Positions 13,435-17,013 are shown, numbered from the stretch's first letter. The stretch: 64,000 bases of DNA from Escherichia coli (GCF_002854065.1 NZ_CP024147.1), one strand, 5' to 3'. Notes: a model not told the origin generated them from the sequence alone. Numbers and translations: made by a program.

Positions 13435-13692
13435 TTAACGCGGAGAAATCCCGTAATGTGCAATGCAGCGCCAGCCACCATCCTGCTGACAATAAACTGA
13501 TTCCGTATGCCCAGGGATCACCCATTGAATTTCCTCGCCAGGCGGACAGGTCAGCCAAATGCATAACCCGCAGCCGCCGCGTAAATCACGGGGAATATCG
13601 CTGACGCGAAAAGTCATGCCCGCTGCCTGCAACGCCTTGCGGGTTTGTATGACGCCGACCGTGGAGTGAAATAAAAACAGATACTCTTTCAT
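13435..13692 (-). CDS. Small DUF3343-like (putative S/Se-carrier-like) protein, 85 aa, translationally coupled to yjiL
   Basis: Track [50 protein letters not shown]...; its ATG overlaps the yjiL stop (ATGA). Family assignment is from pattern recognition, not a search. Confidence 0.5.
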
Positions 13693-14456
13693 GCGCGTTT
13701 TCTCTGCCGCTGACCGATCACCGCCGCGCCAATTGCACCAGCGAATTGCGCATCAGGGTGAGTTTGTACCGGCATTCCCAGATGGCTTTCCAGCATGTGG
13801 GTAAACCTTTGACAGTGGCTAACGCCACCAGTAAACAGAATCGGCGCTTCACAGGAGAGACGAGCAATGAAATTGGCGCTCCGCCGCGCCATCGCGTTAA
13901 TCACTCCGGCGAGAATCGCTTCTGGCGCTACGCCCGCAGAGCGCAGGCTGATCACTTCTGATTCAGCAAACACTGTGCACATACTCGTGATGGCGTGCGG
14001 TATGACATTTTCGGTAATGCTGTCGAGTTGCTCGACGCTGGTGCCAAGCGTGCGCGAGATCACCTCCAGGAAACGCCCGGTGCCTGCCGCGCATTTGTCA
14101 TTCATCAGGAAATCGCACAGGTTACCGTCATCATCAAGCTGAATCACTTTGCTGTCCTGACCACCGATGTCGATTACCGCGCGCGTTGCTGGCTCAAGAA
14201 ACCGTGCGCCCAGCCCGTGACAGGAGATTTCCGTCACTTGTTTATCGGCAAAATCCACCAGTTGCCGTCCGTAGCCGGTGAGCGTCAGAAACGGCGTTGT
14301 CTCTAACCCTTCGCGCAGAGTTTCCCAGGCTTCAGTAATTGCTGTTGCCGGGCGAAAGGGGGTTGGAACGAGGAAACGGCGCGTAATCACGCCGTCAGCC
14401 AGTAAGATCCCTTTGGTGGCGGTTGAGCCGGAATCAATGCCAATCGAATATGTCAC
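13689..14456 (-). CDS. yjiL: BadF/BadG/BcrA/BcrD-type ATPase (HgdC-like activator of 2-hydroxyacyl-CoA dehydratase)
   Basis: Track ORF 13689..14462; probable start is the second GTG (MTYSIGIDSGSTATKG..., acetate/sugar-kinase fold motif) with GGAG 5 nt upstream, about 255 aa. Confidence 0.8.
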   Translation of the reverse strand: MTYSIGIDSGSTATKGILLADGVITRRFLVPTPFRPATAITEAWETLREGLETTPFLTLTGYGRQLVDFADKQVTEISCHGLGARFLEPATRAVIDIGGQDSKVIQLDDDGNLCDFLMNDKCAAGTGRFLEVISRTLGTSVEQLDSITENVIPHAITSMCTVFAESEVISLRSAGVAPEAILAGVINAMARRSANFIARLSCEAPILFTGGVSHCQRFTHMLESHLGMPVQTHPDAQFAGAIGAAVIGQRQRKRA

Positions 14457-14465
14457 TGCCACTCC

Positions 14466-15617
14466 TTACAGCATCTCAATAAAGGCCGCGACACGGGTGC
14501 TGAGCTGCCCGACATCCGAGGTGGAGTAGTCTGTTTCAATAGCGATATAAGGAATGTTGTGCTGCTGGCGCACATGACGTTTAATCGCCAGCGATTCCAC
14601 CGCGTAGGTATGGCACGCCTGCAAAATCACATCAACTACGCCATCGACCTGATATTCTTCAACCATCTGGCTGAGCATTTGCAGGCGCTGATCGTTCGGC
14701 GAAACACAGGAGCAGCCAATCGCCAGATATTTATCCGCCAGCGCGTCGTACACATCACCCGTTTCCGCCACGCATTGCTCGGTGGCTTTCGCCCCGGTGC
14801 AGTTTTCATAACCGACAACCCAGCCGCCATTCTCTTCAATCGCGCGCACCACTTTCTCTGCTGCGCCGCCAATTGGGCAGCCGGTGATTAAAATACGTGG
14901 GTGCGGGTCCAGTCGCTGGCCTTCTTCCCACTGCTGACGAACGCGGGCGGTCATTGCATCCAGTTCATTGATCAACGCCTCTTTATCGAACCGGAAGGTT
15001 GCGCCGTAGACTACTTTCAGAATGTCGCTGCCGCTAAGCGCTGGAGGATTTAACTGCCCCAAATGATAAAAGTTTGCCAGTGCGCGACGTTCGCGGTTTT
15101 TCAGCGCAATGGCATCGCGCAGAGCATCTTCGCTAATCTCGTGCCCAAAACGTTCTTCTACCGTTTTTTGCAAGCGCAGTATCTCGGCTTTCCATAATGC
15201 ACGCGAGGCATCGTCCTTAACGCTGTTTGGCAGTTGCATCACATGAACGGGCTTAAACTCCGCCATGTATTCATACATTTTCTTTTTGCCGTCGCAGGTG
15301 GTTTCACCGACCACCAGATCAGAAAAGTAGAAGTAGGGGCATTTATCGGTTTTGCCGAAGCCGTAGCTGCTTTTAATCAGCGGGCAGAGGTTGCGCGGCA
15401 GATCTTTCTCGGCTTCTTCAATGGTTTCATCAGAGGTGGAACATAGCGAAACCACAACCGCACCGGCTGCCATCGGGAGCTCTTGCGGCATAAAGGTGCA
15501 GTAGGTGCCAACCAGCGGAATGCCGCGCTCCTTGAGATCCATGACGGTGAGAAAGCCTTTCTGGCGAGCTTCAGAGAACTGATCGAAAATGGCGGGTAGA
15601 TCGGTGACAAGTGACAT
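14466..15617 (-). CDS. yjiM: 2-hydroxyglutaryl-CoA dehydratase component-like protein YjiM
   Basis: Track ORF trimmed to ATG (MSLVTDLPAIFDQFSEARQKG...), 383 aa, GGAAGGA Shine-Dalgarno. Confidence 0.8.
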   Translation of the reverse strand: MSLVTDLPAIFDQFSEARQKGFLTVMDLKERGIPLVGTYCTFMPQELPMAAGAVVVSLCSTSDETIEEAEKDLPRNLCPLIKSSYGFGKTDKCPYFYFSDLVVGETTCDGKKKMYEYMAEFKPVHVMQLPNSVKDDASRALWKAEILRLQKTVEERFGHEISEDALRDAIALKNRERRALANFYHLGQLNPPALSGSDILKVVYGATFRFDKEALINELDAMTARVRQQWEEGQRLDPHPRILITGCPIGGAAEKVVRAIEENGGWVVGYENCTGAKATEQCVAETGDVYDALADKYLAIGCSCVSPNDQRLQMLSQMVEEYQVDGVVDVILQACHTYAVESLAIKRHVRQQHNIPYIAIETDYSTSDVGQLSTRVAAFIEML

Positions 15618-15732
15618 GATTTTCCTTCCCCGTACCACGGGAGATAATGAAAAGAGGCCACATTATTACCATTCTTTTAGTGTGGTTTATTTGATCTCTC
15701 TCGCGGTTAGCCACTTAGTTTTTCATGGATTT

Positions 15733-17013
15733 CTATAAATTGCCGAGGGGGAACAAGGCCGGGAGCTGCGACAGCAAATACAAAATAAGTCCAATACAAC
15801 CGCCAACCAGCGTACCGTTGACACGGATAAACTGGAGATCTTTGCCGATATTTAACTCGATTTGCCGCGACATGTCCCGTGCGTCCCAGCTTTTTACCGT
15901 GTCGCTGATATGGCGAGTCAGGAATGCGGAAAACTCAGGCGCAATGCGGTGTGCGGCTTGTTCCAGATGACCATTTAACGACGCCCGCAAGGCATCATCG
16001 GCAATTAACGTTTCGCCAAACCATTGACCAGCCCGCGCGATACGTTCTTTCACACGAGAATCTTCACTGTTGATATCCGCTTTCAGCCATTCCCGTAAAT
16101 CCCCCCACAATTCACTGAGATAGCGGTTAAAAGCTTCATCTTCTTTCAGATAGCTTTTTACGGCATCGGCTCGCGCCGCCATTTCCGGATCGTTTTTCAG
16201 TTTCTCGATCAGGGCGAAGGTAGCGCGATCAAACGCATGGCGGATCTGATGCGCACGATCGCGGCTGATATCATCAAGCAAAGAATTCACCGCGTCAGAA
16301 ACCAACTCCGCGCTATGTTCGCCCAGCCATTCAGTGGGCAAAATTTTGGCTTTCAGTGGATGCTCGCTCTCCAGCCAGCGAACAATTTGCTGGGCAATAA
16401 ACTTGCGCGATTTATCGCGCTGGAGAAGGGCGATCAACTGTGCGATCAGCGTATCCAGCAGCACCTGATGACGATCGTTTTTAGTCATACTCTCCAGCAT
16501 CAACGCACTGGTGCCAGAAAGATCGACTTTATCAATCGCCCGGTGGACCGCGCGCTTAAGCAGGCGCTGAATACGCGCATCATCGGTTAGTTCAAGAAAA
16601 CCGCTCATGATCTGCAACAGATGCTGACCAACGCGGCGGGCGTTTTCTGGCTGACTAAACCAGTTGCCAATCAACAACGCCGGTTCGTGACGTCGAATCA
16701 ATGCCACCAGCGATTGGGTATCGAGAAATTTTTCCTGCACGAACTGGCCGAGATTTTCGCCAATCCGGTCTTTATTACGCGGAATAATCGCCGTATGACG
16801 AGAAATGATCGGAATCGGCACGCGGCGAAACAGCGCCACCACCGCAAACCAGTCCGCCAGCGCGCCGACCATCGCCGCTTCAGCAATCGCCTTCACGCCG
16901 CTCACCCAAAAATTGGGCGGCAAAAACAGCGTAACGACAAAGGTAGCAGCGGCGATAAGCAGTAAAGAGAGCGCCAACATTTTGGCGCGTCTGAGTTCAA
17001 TGAGTTTATTCAT
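15733..17013 (-). CDS. yjiN: Inner-membrane protein YjiN (DUF445 family)
   Basis: Track ORF 15733..17145 trimmed to ATG 17013 ([25 protein letters not shown]...), 426 aa. Confidence 0.8.

Follow-up and report, generated by a model that had tools for sequence, protein, structure and literature searches.

What the products of yjiM and yjiL do in Escherichia coli, and which of the neighboring genes belong with them, is the question raised by positions 13435–17013 of the chromosomal stretch analyzed here (GCF_002854065.1, NZ_CP024147.1; 64,000 nucleotides, henceforth the window). A preliminary description had read the one-strand series yjiN, yjiM, yjiL, a small ORF and yjiK as an operon for a 2-hydroxyacyl-CoA dehydratase-like module of unknown substrate. 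We consider it probable instead that an FNR-activated yjiM-yjiL-ytiA operon encodes an ATP-driven reductase of the DCCP type together with a sulfur/selenium carrier, and not a 2-hydroxyacyl-CoA dehydratase. The answer draws on family membership by sequence, conserved ligands, conservation of three genes, the promoter and neighborhood statistics, all from this analysis, and on FNR activation and co-expression with yedEF from the literature.

From yjiJ to mdtM every named gene is encoded on the minus strand, where the preliminary description had placed them, and 13435–17013 runs exactly from the ytiA stop through the yjiN start codon (Table 1). The spacing is 40 nt between mdtM and yjiN, 115 nt between yjiN and yjiM (a gap that contains the putative yjiM promoter), 9 nt between yjiM and yjiL, 64 nt between ytiA and yjiK and 67 nt between yjiK and yjiJ, while yjiL and ytiA share a 4-nt ATGA overlap by which, as read from the sequence, ytiA is translationally coupled to yjiL. 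The start of yjiM, the ATG at 15617, is backed by a conserved Shine-Dalgarno sequence and 5′UTR. Several E. coli chromosomes match the region with 100% identity, and 5295 of 5426 complete genomes contain 80% or more of it; the locus is part of the E. coli core region. GC content is 0.42–0.44 in yjiK against 0.54–0.56 in yjiL and yjiM. The small ORF had been proposed as a candidate DUF3343 gene; it does belong to that family, but it is already annotated as ytiA, b4715, in RefSeq and in K-12 MG1655.

Table 1. Genes and predicted regulatory features between yjiJ and mdtM (positions in the window).
Feature	Position	Strand	Remarks
mdtM	17054-18286	-	
yjiN	15733-17013	-	Pfam DUF445; membrane protein; within 13435-17013 and judged outside the module
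yjiM promoter (putative)	15662-15704	-	FNR-type site, 23 nt, then -10 element
FNR-type site (putative)	15691-15704	-	GCGAG-AGAG-ATCAA; perfect extended right half ATCAAAT
yjiM -10 element (putative)	15662-15667	-	AATAAT here; TATAAT in other genera
5′UTR hairpin of yjiM (predicted)	15629-15641	-	CCCGT-GGT-ACGGG; abuts and overlaps the Shine-Dalgarno sequence
yjiM Shine-Dalgarno	15623-15629	-	GGAAGGA
yjiM	14466-15617	-	383 aa; predicted catalytic DCCP; Pfam HGD-D, E 4e-121
yjiL	13689-14456	-	255 aa; Pfam BcrAD_BadFG, E 6.6e-75
ytiA (b4715)	13435-13692	-	85 aa; PF11823 Se_S_carrier (formerly DUF3343), E 5e-14
yjiK	12510-13370	-	Pfam SdiA-regulated; downstream neighbor, judged outside the module
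yjiJ	11264-12442	-	

We compared 81 non-redundant loci from many phyla with YjiM orthologs at least 51% identical, 71 of them non-gammaproteobacterial. A co-occurrence check of the five-gene set in this collection showed that yjiM, yjiL and ytiA are the only genes traveling together. An activase gene was found in 53 of the 81 loci (adjacent and on the same strand in 46), and none lay within 8 kb in the other 28. Within 1.17 Mb there were 24 DUF3343 ORFs, 17 of them no more than 300 nt from an activase or DCCP gene, in at least four orders (DCCP-activase-DUF3343; DCCP paralog-DUF3343-activase; DUF3343-activase-DCCP; DUF3343-DCCP). All nine gammaproteobacterial loci with a complete flank have ytiA directly 3′ of yjiL with the overlap kept, and 14 of the 71 loci outside this class carry a DUF3343 gene. 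The flanking genes behave differently: yjiN adjoins yjiM only in Escherichia, Citrobacter, Superficieibacter and one MAG, lies 3.9 kb from it in Klebsiella with opposite-strand genes between, and is absent from the Cedecea, Hafnia, Morganella and Aeromonas loci as well as from all 71 non-gammaproteobacterial ones. Among the loci compared, yjiK was seen outside E. coli in Superficieibacter alone, there 850 nt more distant. We judge yjiN and yjiK to be lineage-specific neighbors outside the module, and a three-gene unit yjiM-yjiL-ytiA that excludes both is very likely. Thus, although the single strand and the short gaps speak for an operon of five genes, only the part of that proposal concerning yjiM, yjiL and ytiA holds, since the outer genes are not conserved with the trio and both yjiM and yjiK have promoters assigned to them. 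No intrinsic terminator was detected 3′ of yjiN or 3′ of ytiA, so that transcription may read through at either point.

A class II-type FNR-activated promoter would have its FNR site at about −41.5, with the −10 element downstream, and would show FNR binding and FNR-dependent expression. The sequence indicates that yjiM has a conserved promoter of its own with a putative FNR half-site. The block recurs in Escherichia, Klebsiella, Superficieibacter, Citrobacter, Cedecea and one MAG although the genes upstream differ, and conservation ends 5′ of GATCAA. The left half of the putative site is weak in E. coli (2/5) and better in Citrobacter (4/5). In published data yjiML is listed as a directly FNR-activated operon from ChIP and expression experiments (PMC3688515), and yjiM expression has been seen to rise when oxygen is depleted (PMC2241611). 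For yjiK, an RpoD promoter has been assigned to the yjiL-yjiK interval (PMC3946193); it maps inside ytiA, with an exact match in K-12 and one mismatch at 13524–13554 of the window. The predicted hairpin in the yjiM 5′UTR keeps an invariant stem and a variable loop in eight enteric sequences, the closing T-A pair being replaced by G-C in Hafnia, and it had no match in Rfam.

The family to which YjiM belongs was addressed with curated models and structures. Against the NCBIfam equivalog model for double-cubane proteins (NF040772) YjiM scores 531.3 bits (cutoff 350) over model positions 1–372 of 372, whereas it reaches 93 bits with HadC (cutoff 700), 19 with HadB (cutoff 750) and 81 with BzdN (cutoff 454). 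The DCCP structures 6ENO and 7YYL match it with E 4.5e-75 across residues 26–383. In an alignment of 36 diverse relatives (33–49% identity), each of the cysteines C40, C59, C78, C108, C273, C302 and C335 is either invariant or conserved to at least 90%, and all seven have counterparts in the 6ENO alignment; the DCCP seven-Cys motif comprises six cluster ligands and one conserved Cys near the cluster. The spacing in YjiM (X18/X18/X29/X164/X28/X32) is no literal fit to the published CX19CX18-19CX29CX166-170CX32-34CX32C, some loops being shorter. Going by these matches, we are highly confident that YjiM-YjiL is a DCCP-type reductase, and we would expect YjiM to hold an [8Fe-9S] cluster in E. coli. 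Systems of the DCCP/DCCP-R kind are expected to have such a cluster and to reduce small molecules (acetylene, hydrazine, azide) at the expense of ATP. The pair has been named a class II DCCP system by the Dobbek laboratory (PMC7317905). As a kind, the system of yjiM-yjiL-ytiA is already known, in an operon itself known but uncharacterized.

A dehydratase, in which one electron from YjiL would activate YjiM a single time for the dehydration of some 2-hydroxyacyl-CoA and all five genes from yjiN to yjiK would form one operon, is by the same evidence very improbable. It would agree with the HGD-D match of YjiM (Table 1), with the TIGR00241 match of YjiL and with the K-12 annotation, which still has the two proteins as dehydratase subunit and activator. 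However, besides the scores just given, the region holds a single HGD-D gene, whereas dehydratases need an alpha/beta pair, and the seven conserved cysteines are not the three-Cys pattern of that family. Among the seven genes between and including yjiJ and mdtM, scanned with Pfam, there was neither a second (alpha) dehydratase subunit nor a CoA-transferase gene, and no CoA-transferase or ligase is annotated in the 13.5 kb surrounding the E. coli operon or in the Klebsiella locus. The dehydratase reading is largely refuted by these membership tests (HadB/HadC scores, lone subunit gene, no transferase): the preliminary description had rightly seen in YjiM a member of the HgdB/BcrC superfamily, but not a dehydratase subunit.

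YjiL had been recognized as a BadF/HgdC-type ATPase, and its Pfam assignment bears this out, as do its PDB matches, of which 1HUX HgdC is the best (E 1.3e-52) and 7YYL_E, a DCCP-R, reaches E 5e-47. It scores 358 bits against TIGR00241, "acyl-CoA dehydratase activase" (cutoff 125). A match to HgdC-type activators is common to DCCP-R and dehydratase systems and does not separate the two families. C122 and C160 of YjiL align with C115 and C152 of DCCP-R, which are cluster ligands (PMC9351452). We therefore predict YjiL to be an ATP-dependent electron-injecting reductase, or archerase, of the DCCP-R type, with C122 and C160 as putative ligands of a dimer-bridging [4Fe-4S] cluster.

YtiA scores 52 bits against PF11823 (cutoff 25); F8, C41 and G42 are invariant among 23 relatives and P34 is at least 90% conserved. 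Its AlphaFold2 model (pLDDT 91.5) has a ferredoxin-like fold in which C41 ends the loop before strand 3, and a Foldseek comparison with solved structures gave no related one, the best being PII-like with E at least 0.02. The family name Se_S_carrier is itself a bioinformatic proposal; DUF3343 proteins form no selenium-specific subfamily, occur in organisms with and without SelD, are linked to Sec lyase and YedF, and have an activase in their STRING list (PMC5322559). We lean towards YtiA being the S/Se carrier partner of the reductase.

Genomic context is another way to approach the pathway. Among the 71 non-gammaproteobacterial loci, 14 have a TIGR01977/SclA-like lyase, 7 a YedF (TIGR03527) and 4 a SelD (TIGR00476), and nine adjacent lyase-DUF3343 gene pairs occur in 8 of them; MtaA-like methyltransferases are found in 10, a corrinoid protein in 8 and RACo in 8. 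Sulfur or selenium neighbors appear in only 23 of the 71 loci, Firmicute or actinobacterial. No S or Se gene adjoins the operon in any gammaproteobacterial locus compared, and the E. coli YedF is a 77-aa TusA-like protein, as against the form of about 200 aa beside the Firmicute orthologs. Of the NF040772 proteins, 955 of 970 are in SelD-encoding assemblies, compared with 38% of genomes overall having SelD (Haft and Gwadz). DCCP and DCCP-R have also been drawn inside type 1 mlp clusters (PMC10418091), and a published E. coli iModulon, anaerobically active and proposed for Mo/Se usage, groups yjiLM with yedEF, ynjE and ydjXYZ-ynjABCD. The gene ynjE in this iModulon encodes a sulfurtransferase. 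Firmicute neighborhoods and E. coli co-expression with yedEF together point to sulfur/selenium trafficking, and the earlier view that the module lacks an obvious pathway context was too pessimistic. We infer that the context of yjiM-yjiL-ytiA is anaerobic sulfur/selenium trafficking; a role specific to selenium is possible, if rather doubtful.

The same neighborhoods bear on whether the element concerned is sulfur, the enzyme carrying out the anaerobic reductive processing of a persulfide, polysulfide or methylthio compound and the selenium link being a by-product of a shared anaerobic lifestyle. Such a function is unlikely in our estimate, although the presence of DUF3343 with and without SelD and in no selenium-specific clade, the proposal that mlp clusters act in methyl-sulfur and methionine salvage (PMC10418091), PatB-like C-S lyases beside 7 of the non-gammaproteobacterial loci and ynjE in the iModulon all agree with it. 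Against it, SelD and YedF (TIGR03527 being a selenium-metabolism equivalog) directly adjoin YjiM orthologs, and the family shows the SelD co-occurrence given above.

Also to be weighed is a DCCP-type reductase whose substrate is a larger organic molecule (a CoA thioester, aromatic or unsaturated compound) with no tie to S or Se, YtiA being some other accessory such as a regulator or electron mediator. YjiM residue 26 aligns with DCCP residue 62, and YjiM is without those N-terminal helices by which the Carboxydothermus enzyme keeps its substrate channel narrow, on which ground a CoA ester or other large substrate has been argued to be possible and would be the likelier (PMC7317905). Most of the loci outside the gammaproteobacteria, 46 of 71, have no S/Se neighbors, and some loci adjoin peptide ABC transporters, PatB-like lyases or MatE exporters. 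We nevertheless regard this as improbable: it leaves unexplained the recurrent DUF3343, SclA-like lyase, YedF and SelD neighbors, the SelD co-occurrence of the family and the E. coli co-expression with yedEF and ynjE, and in the enteric loci the operon comes with no gene for an acyl-CoA synthetase or transferase.

YtiA could also be a maturation factor that, with a cysteine desulfurase or selenocysteine lyase, delivers the ninth bridging sulfide (or selenide) joining the YjiM cubanes. The nine SclA-like desulfurase/lyase-DUF3343 pairs lie beside DCCP genes, the invariant Cys of DUF3343 is on an exposed loop, and Haft and Gwadz, looking for a reason for the SelD link, named a selenium-bridged cluster as a formal possibility. 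Against this, 57 of the 71 non-gammaproteobacterial loci have no DUF3343 nearby, nor has the one archaeal DCCP-activase pair sampled; the Carboxydothermus enzyme was characterized as a two-component system (PMC7317905; PMC9351452, a 2022 PNAS paper), and general Isc/Suf machinery could provide the sulfide. This role of YtiA is, we think, quite unlikely.

Returning to the reductase with an S/Se carrier, the YjiL homodimer would hold one [4Fe-4S] cluster between its subunits on C122/C160 and receive electrons from ferredoxin or flavodoxin. Binding and hydrolysis of ATP would then let YjiL drive an electron of very low potential into the [8Fe-9S] double cubane that YjiM holds by the Cys 40/59/78/108/273/302/335 set, where a hard-to-reduce substrate would be reduced. 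YtiA, made in step with YjiL, would be the third conserved component, most likely a persulfide- or perselenide-type carrier with its single conserved Cys, C41, and ferredoxin-like fold, which would hand an S or Se species to the reductase or take one from it. The pathway would be S/Se trafficking under anaerobiosis, feeding or recycling selenide. In this scheme we infer which cofactors the E. coli proteins hold, that YtiA is a carrier and that the substrate is an S/Se species.

Several known systems can be set beside this one. HgdAB/HgdC, HadBC/HadI and FldBC/FldI have in common with YjiM/YjiL the superfamily (HGD-D, BcrAD_BadFG) and the principle of ATP-driven electron injection. These 2-hydroxyacyl-CoA dehydratases are, however, heterodimers of an alpha and a beta subunit, each with one three-Cys [4Fe-4S] cluster, and work with a CoA-transferase, whereas the E. 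coli locus has one subunit gene, seven cysteines, no transferase and scores far under the HadB/HadC cutoffs. In class I benzoyl-CoA reductases (BcrABCD, BzdNOPQ, MbdNOPQ), YjiM has distant homologs (BzdN, E 1e-19; MbdN, E 3e-17) and YjiL is likewise a distant homolog of MbdQ and MbdP. As predicted for YjiM/YjiL, ATP hydrolysis is coupled to low-potential reduction, and recent work (PMC11971306) reports [8Fe-9S] clusters in the benzoyl-CoA reductase family. The class I enzymes are built from four different subunits, their substrates are aromatic CoA esters, and no aromatic-degradation genes lie near E. coli yjiM-yjiL-ytiA. With MarBHDK, the nitrogenase-like methylthio-alkane reductase, we see a functional analogy only and claim no sequence relationship to YjiM/YjiL. 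North et al., in 2020, are said to have described it as an ATP-driven low-potential Fe-S reductase cleaving C-S bonds of small organosulfur compounds. Homologs of MarBHDK have been reported close to those mlp clusters in which DCCP genes also lie (PMC10418091), but the fold and the ATPase class are unrelated, MinD/NifH type against an ASKHA archerase of the YjiL kind.

DUF3343, YedE/YedF, SclA-type lyase and SelD make up a candidate selenium-trafficking set (Lin et al. 2015; Haft and Gwadz 2023). YtiA keeps the invariant Cys of DUF3343; in Firmicutes SelD, YedF, SclA-like lyases and DUF3343 adjoin YjiM orthologs, and E. coli yjiLM co-varies with yedEF. The E. coli operon is, however, physically apart from selD and yedEF, and the tie of the set to DCCP is bioinformatic. 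Among the closest systems is DCCP/DCCP-R of Carboxydothermus hydrogenoformans (CHY_0487/CHY_0488; 6ENO, 7YYL), the same protein pair from two adjacent genes, with all seven DCCP cysteines and both of DCCP-R conserved in YjiM and YjiL. YjiM differs from that DCCP by several shorter inter-Cys loops and by the absence of the channel-closing helices, some 36 residues at the N-terminus, a lack that makes it "class II" (PMC7317905), and the E. coli system has in addition a DUF3343 gene coupled downstream, a feature not described for the characterized two-protein DCCP/DCCP-R.

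Sequence comparison gives good support to placing YjiM and YjiL, respectively, among the double-cubane cluster proteins (DCCPs) and their ATP-dependent reductases (DCCP-R or archerases). YjiL matched the BcrAD_BadFG / TIGR00241 ATPase profiles and its nearest solved relatives were HgdC (1HUX), HadI (4EHT), MbdQ and DCCP-R (7YYL_E, E 5e-47), which agrees with the BadF/HgdC-type ATPase proposed in the preliminary description. Its C122 and C160 align to C115 and C152 of DCCP-R, the ligands of the dimer-bridging [4Fe-4S] cluster (PMC9351452). YjiM passed the NCBIfam equivalog model "double-cubane-cluster-containing anaerobic reductase" with 531 bits against a cutoff of 350, and its best solved relative was the Carboxydothermus DCCP (6ENO/7YYL, E 4.5e-75), with YjiM residue 26 aligning to DCCP residue 62. 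That YjiM had been described as an HgdB-like dehydratase component is understandable from its match to Pfam HGD-D, which holds at the superfamily level only; the protein fell below the cutoffs for HadC (93 of 700 bits), HadB (19 of 750) and BzdN (81 of 454), and a Pfam scan of the neighbouring genes found neither a second HGD-D gene nor a CoA-transferase gene, so that two defining features of a dehydratase are missing. We have abandoned that assignment, and a 2-hydroxyacyl-CoA dehydratase, rejected by the family membership tests, is now a very improbable reading of the locus.

When YjiM was aligned with 35 relatives (33–49% identity), seven of its cysteines (40, 59, 78, 108, 273, 302 and 335) showed either no variation or conservation of at least 90%. 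A regular expression of the seven-cysteine motif published in two papers (CX19CX18-19CX29CX166-170CX32-34CX32C) did not match YjiM, in which the spacing between residues 40 and 335 is X18, X18, X29, X164, X28 and X32. We did not accept this failure as a case against DCCP membership, as the loops are shorter yet all seven positions are filled in the alignment; a search with the published motif would overlook E. coli YjiM, the very protein that those papers cite. A review from the Dobbek laboratory had already taken YjiM with YjiL for a probable "class II" DCCP and noted that the channel-closing N-terminal helices are missing from YjiM (PMC7317905). The sole characterised DCCP reduces acetylene, hydrazine and azide in vitro (PMC7317905, PMC9351452). 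The review also holds a large organic or CoA-ester substrate plausible (PMC7317905), and we give a DCCP-type reductase acting on such a substrate a low probability.

Genes of the yjiM region in the window, listed from mdtM to yjiJ.
Gene	Position	Strand	Remark
mdtM	17054-18286	minus	
yjiN	15733-17013	minus	DUF445
yjiM	14466-15617	minus	
yjiL	13689-14456	minus	
ytiA	13435-13692	minus	b4715 in K-12; RefSeq "DUF3343 domain-containing protein"
yjiK	12510-13370	minus	
yjiJ	11264-12442	minus	

The genes lie where they had been placed before, and the span originally described runs exactly from the stop of ytiA to the start of yjiN. The candidate small ORF is a real DUF3343 gene and not a new one, being annotated already in RefSeq and K-12. 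In gene order from mdtM to yjiJ the spacers measure 40, 115 and 9 nt, followed by a 4-nt ATGA overlap of yjiL and ytiA and spacers of 64 and 67 nt. Positions 11000-18500 are 100% identical to several E. coli strains, and at least 80% of the stretch is carried by 5295 of 5426 complete genomes. Downstream of mdtM (about 18600-20070), the annotation of this strain has an IS1 transposase pseudogene with a frameshift and a BrnT/BrnA toxin-antitoxin pair where K-12 has ytiE and the rpnD pseudogene, so the E. coli chromosome is variable at this spot.

To delimit the unit we used 80 fetched loci with YjiM orthologs 51–96% identical, spanning Enterobacterales, Aeromonas, many Clostridia and Lachnospiraceae, Enterococcus, Listeria, Eggerthellaceae and Coriobacteriaceae, plus one Klebsiella locus (81 in total). 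A YjiL-like ATPase (activase) was encoded in 53 of them, adjoining the yjiM ortholog on the same strand in 46. In the other 28 loci (L016, L023, L027, L032, L033, L038, L039 and others, e.g. Dorea and other Lachnospiraceae) no activase gene occurred within 8 kb, and these orthologs must either use one encoded elsewhere or operate without. Searching with E. coli YtiA alone (phmmer) reached only Gammaproteobacteria, and an iterated HMM was required to find the Firmicute copies; this profile detected 24 DUF3343 ORFs in 1.17 Mb, 17 of them at most 300 nt from an activase or DCCP gene. All nine gammaproteobacterial loci whose flank is complete have the order yjiM-yjiL-ytiA, the last two genes abutting or overlapping. 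Clostridia often have a long DCCP paralog-DUF3343-activase arrangement (L029, L058, L060, L076), and DUF3343-activase-DCCP (L078, L083) and DUF3343-DCCP (L057) also occur. Adjacency that is kept through rearrangement across phyla is a classical mark of functional coupling. Several Clostridia (L029, L030, L058, L060, L076) carry a second, longer DCCP paralog (419–453 aa) beside the YjiM-type ortholog, and in these five loci the DUF3343 gene adjoins the long paralog and not the YjiM-type copy, as does the activase in four. An exact-sequence look-up of three more distant, long-type DCCPs, located on short metagenomic contigs, found no DUF3343 nearby; the partner is not universal among DCCPs. DCCP-activase fusions exist among ten long relatives scanned with Pfam; DUF3343 was fused to DCCP or activase neither in these nor, by a custom DUF3343 HMM, in 270 fetched proteins.

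The flanking genes behave differently. Only Escherichia, Citrobacter, Superficieibacter and one MAG have yjiN beside yjiM; the Klebsiella copy lies 3.9 kb off with opposite-strand genes intervening, and yjiN is missing from the loci of Cedecea, Hafnia, Morganella and Aeromonas as well as from each of the 71 non-gammaproteobacterial ones. Among the 81 loci, only those of E. coli and Superficieibacter carry yjiK, in the latter at a displaced position. The low GC content of yjiK (42–44% at 12500-13500, versus 54–56% for yjiL and yjiM at 13500-15250) and near-absence from other genera suggest that it was acquired separately. The co-occurrence analysis that the preliminary description had called for thus upheld the trio, which recurs together, and not the tightly packed five-gene operon, since yjiN and yjiK are lineage-limited neighbours that do not accompany it. 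A real unit of three genes, yjiM-yjiL-ytiA, is well supported. Reviews on proline-rich antimicrobial peptides refer to 'YjiL/MdtM' as an inner-membrane uptake transporter. YjiL is a predicted soluble Fe-S ATPase of the archerase family and, by comparative genomics, does not form an operon with mdtM, so the phenotype described must be explained in another way.

The evidence on transcription largely points to similar boundaries. In the 115-nt spacer between yjiN and yjiM, a block is kept in six genera although the upstream gene varies, and conservation ends abruptly 5' of it. The block consists of GATCAA(A/T), 23 nt, TATAAT (AATAAT in E. coli), a hairpin CCCGT-loop-ACGGG, the Shine-Dalgarno sequence GGAAGGA and ATG. 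ATCAAAT matches the extended FNR half-site perfectly and is positioned as in a putative class II promoter; the left half of the predicted site is a poor match in E. coli and a closer one in Citrobacter (TTGTT). In agreement with published data, Myers et al. (PMC3688515) count "yjiML", which has a ChIP peak and is induced anaerobically, with the operons that FNR activates directly. yjiM also rises together with nrf, frd and nrdDG genes in O157:H7 on oxygen depletion (PMC2241611), and under Ni/Cu stress it goes down as the FNR regulon does (PMC12724342). For yjiK, genomic SELEX put an RpoD promoter in the yjiL-yjiK interval (PMC3946193); this sigma-70 promoter (CTGACC-19-TACAAT) falls within the ytiA coding sequence, exactly in K-12 (L090 3758-3788) and with one mismatch in this strain (13524-13554, minus strand, -10 TTCAAT). 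A consensus scan for promoters and terminators detected no intrinsic terminator at the yjiN/yjiM or ytiA/yjiK junction, so some read-through may occur at both; it also gave fewer promoter-like sites than shuffled sequence, and did not settle operon boundaries. Separate transcription and unrelated function, named at the outset as evidence against a common module, largely describe yjiN and yjiK and do not describe the trio.

The hairpin (15623-15641, minus strand) stands directly against the yjiM Shine-Dalgarno sequence. In eight enteric sequences (the window, L002 and L005-L011) its stem is invariant and its loop of 2–3 nt variable, with Hafnia having G-C in place of the closing T-A pair. It may control translation or mRNA stability; Rfam gave only a chance-level match in 13300-17200 and none for the hairpin.

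The third gene product, YtiA, matched PF11823 (Se_S_carrier) with 52 bits (cutoff 25). F8, C41 and G42 were invariant among 23 relatives and P34 nearly so. A confident AlphaFold2 model built on the alignment of these relatives (pLDDT 91.5) predicts a ferredoxin-like beta-alpha-beta-beta-alpha-beta-beta fold in which C41 ends the loop preceding strand 3. A PDB sequence search gave no significant relative, and Foldseek returned weak PII-like or generic ferredoxin-fold matches, none with E < 0.001; these matches were set aside as a functional clue. The name "Se/S carrier" was proposed from comparative genomics (PMC5322559), and YtiA would act as such a carrier through C41. That it instead donates the bridging sulfide or selenide of the YjiM cluster appears quite unlikely.

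Clues to what might be carried come from the surroundings of YjiM orthologs outside Gammaproteobacteria, which are the landscape of the "type 1 mlp gene cluster" (PMC10418091). Over the 71 non-gammaproteobacterial loci, we counted TIGR01977/SclA-like cysteine desulfurases or selenocysteine lyases in 14 (nine SclA-like lyase genes, in eight loci, directly adjoin a DUF3343 gene), YedF in its TIGR03527 "selenium metabolism" form in seven, SelD (TIGR00476) in four, MtaA-like methyltransferases in ten (24 genes), corrinoid proteins in eight, RACo activases in eight, CobW in four, and PatB-like C-S lyases with peptide-type ABC transporters in seven. The published drawings of these clusters mark DCCP and DCCP-R as putative selenium genes, and their authors suggest that methyl-selenide is recycled or methionine salvaged (PMC10418091). 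Haft and Gwadz found SelD encoded in the assemblies of 955 of 970 NF040772 proteins, and Lin et al. described a Slackia STRING neighbourhood of DUF3343, YedF and Sec lyase that includes an activase and HGD subunits (PMC5322559). In E. coli, independent-component analysis of transcriptomes placed yjiLM in a single iModulon, active under anaerobic conditions, with yedEF, ynjE and ydjXYZ-ynjABCD; the authors of the analysis tie it to Mo/Se usage (PMC7888660). Upstream of ydjX (K-12, L088 7270-7300) there is an FNR-type site, TTGAG-N4-ATCAA, and upstream of yedE (K-12, L089 4170-4200) a perfect extended half-site, AAATTTGATCT, including a perfect TTGAT, consistent with common FNR dependence. By eye, the yjiM, yedE, ydjX and ynjE upstream regions shared nothing beyond FNR-type half or full sites.

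The Firmicute neighbourhoods and the E. coli co-expression converge on sulfur/selenium trafficking as the probable context of yjiM-yjiL-ytiA. The earlier statement that the genes have no obvious pathway context in E. coli stands for their enteric surroundings, where no locus had sulfur/selenium neighbours, and gives way before the co-expression with yedEF and the Firmicute loci. Such a context was seen in only about one third of the latter, and the YedF of E. coli, a short TusA-like protein, differs from the TIGR03527 form beside YjiM orthologs. DUF3343 has no selenium-specific clade (PMC5322559); a role in sulfur alone, against which the SelD co-occurrence and the SelD and YedF genes beside YjiM orthologs can be set, is to our mind a minor possibility.

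In the mechanism that we propose, YjiL would be reduced by ferredoxin or flavodoxin and, at the expense of ATP, would pass low-potential electrons to the double cubane of YjiM, YjiM would reduce a refractory substrate, and YtiA C41 would exchange sulfur or selenium species with the YjiL-YjiM system. The system might be specific for selenium. Speculatively, and with rather low confidence, the trio could be an ATP-driven selenium-mobilising reductase in which YjiM frees selenide or selenol and C41 carries the product as a perselenide towards SelD. Electrons energised by YjiL would then allow reductive release at YjiM from forms poorly handled by ordinary thiol chemistry, candidate substrates being elemental or polymeric Se(0) or the C-Se bond of a small organoselenium compound. 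Beyond family membership, the functional statements made here are ones that we infer. If the selenium reading were true, the DCCP family would gain its first physiological function, and selenoprotein and selenouridine synthesis in E. coli an unrecognised anaerobic step.

The literature or RefSeq already had the genes, their assignment to DCCPs, the control by FNR and the hints of selenium for both DCCP and DUF3343. What we add is the delimitation of the unit to three genes, with yjiN and yjiK removed, the recognition of DUF3343, a small cysteine-bearing protein usually ignored, as a recurrent third partner, and the joining of independent lines (Firmicute neighbourhoods, the SelD co-occurrence in the literature and the shared expression with yedEF in E. 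coli). A vague "dehydratase-like" annotation becomes a specific question about selenium supply under anaerobiosis, and the E. coli copy, being core, FNR-induced and in a genetically tractable host, opens the physiological role of DCCPs to experiment. The kind of system is itself already known. In the Carboxydothermus DCCP/DCCP-R pair, electron injection by the reductase into the double cubane has been shown structurally (PMC9351452).
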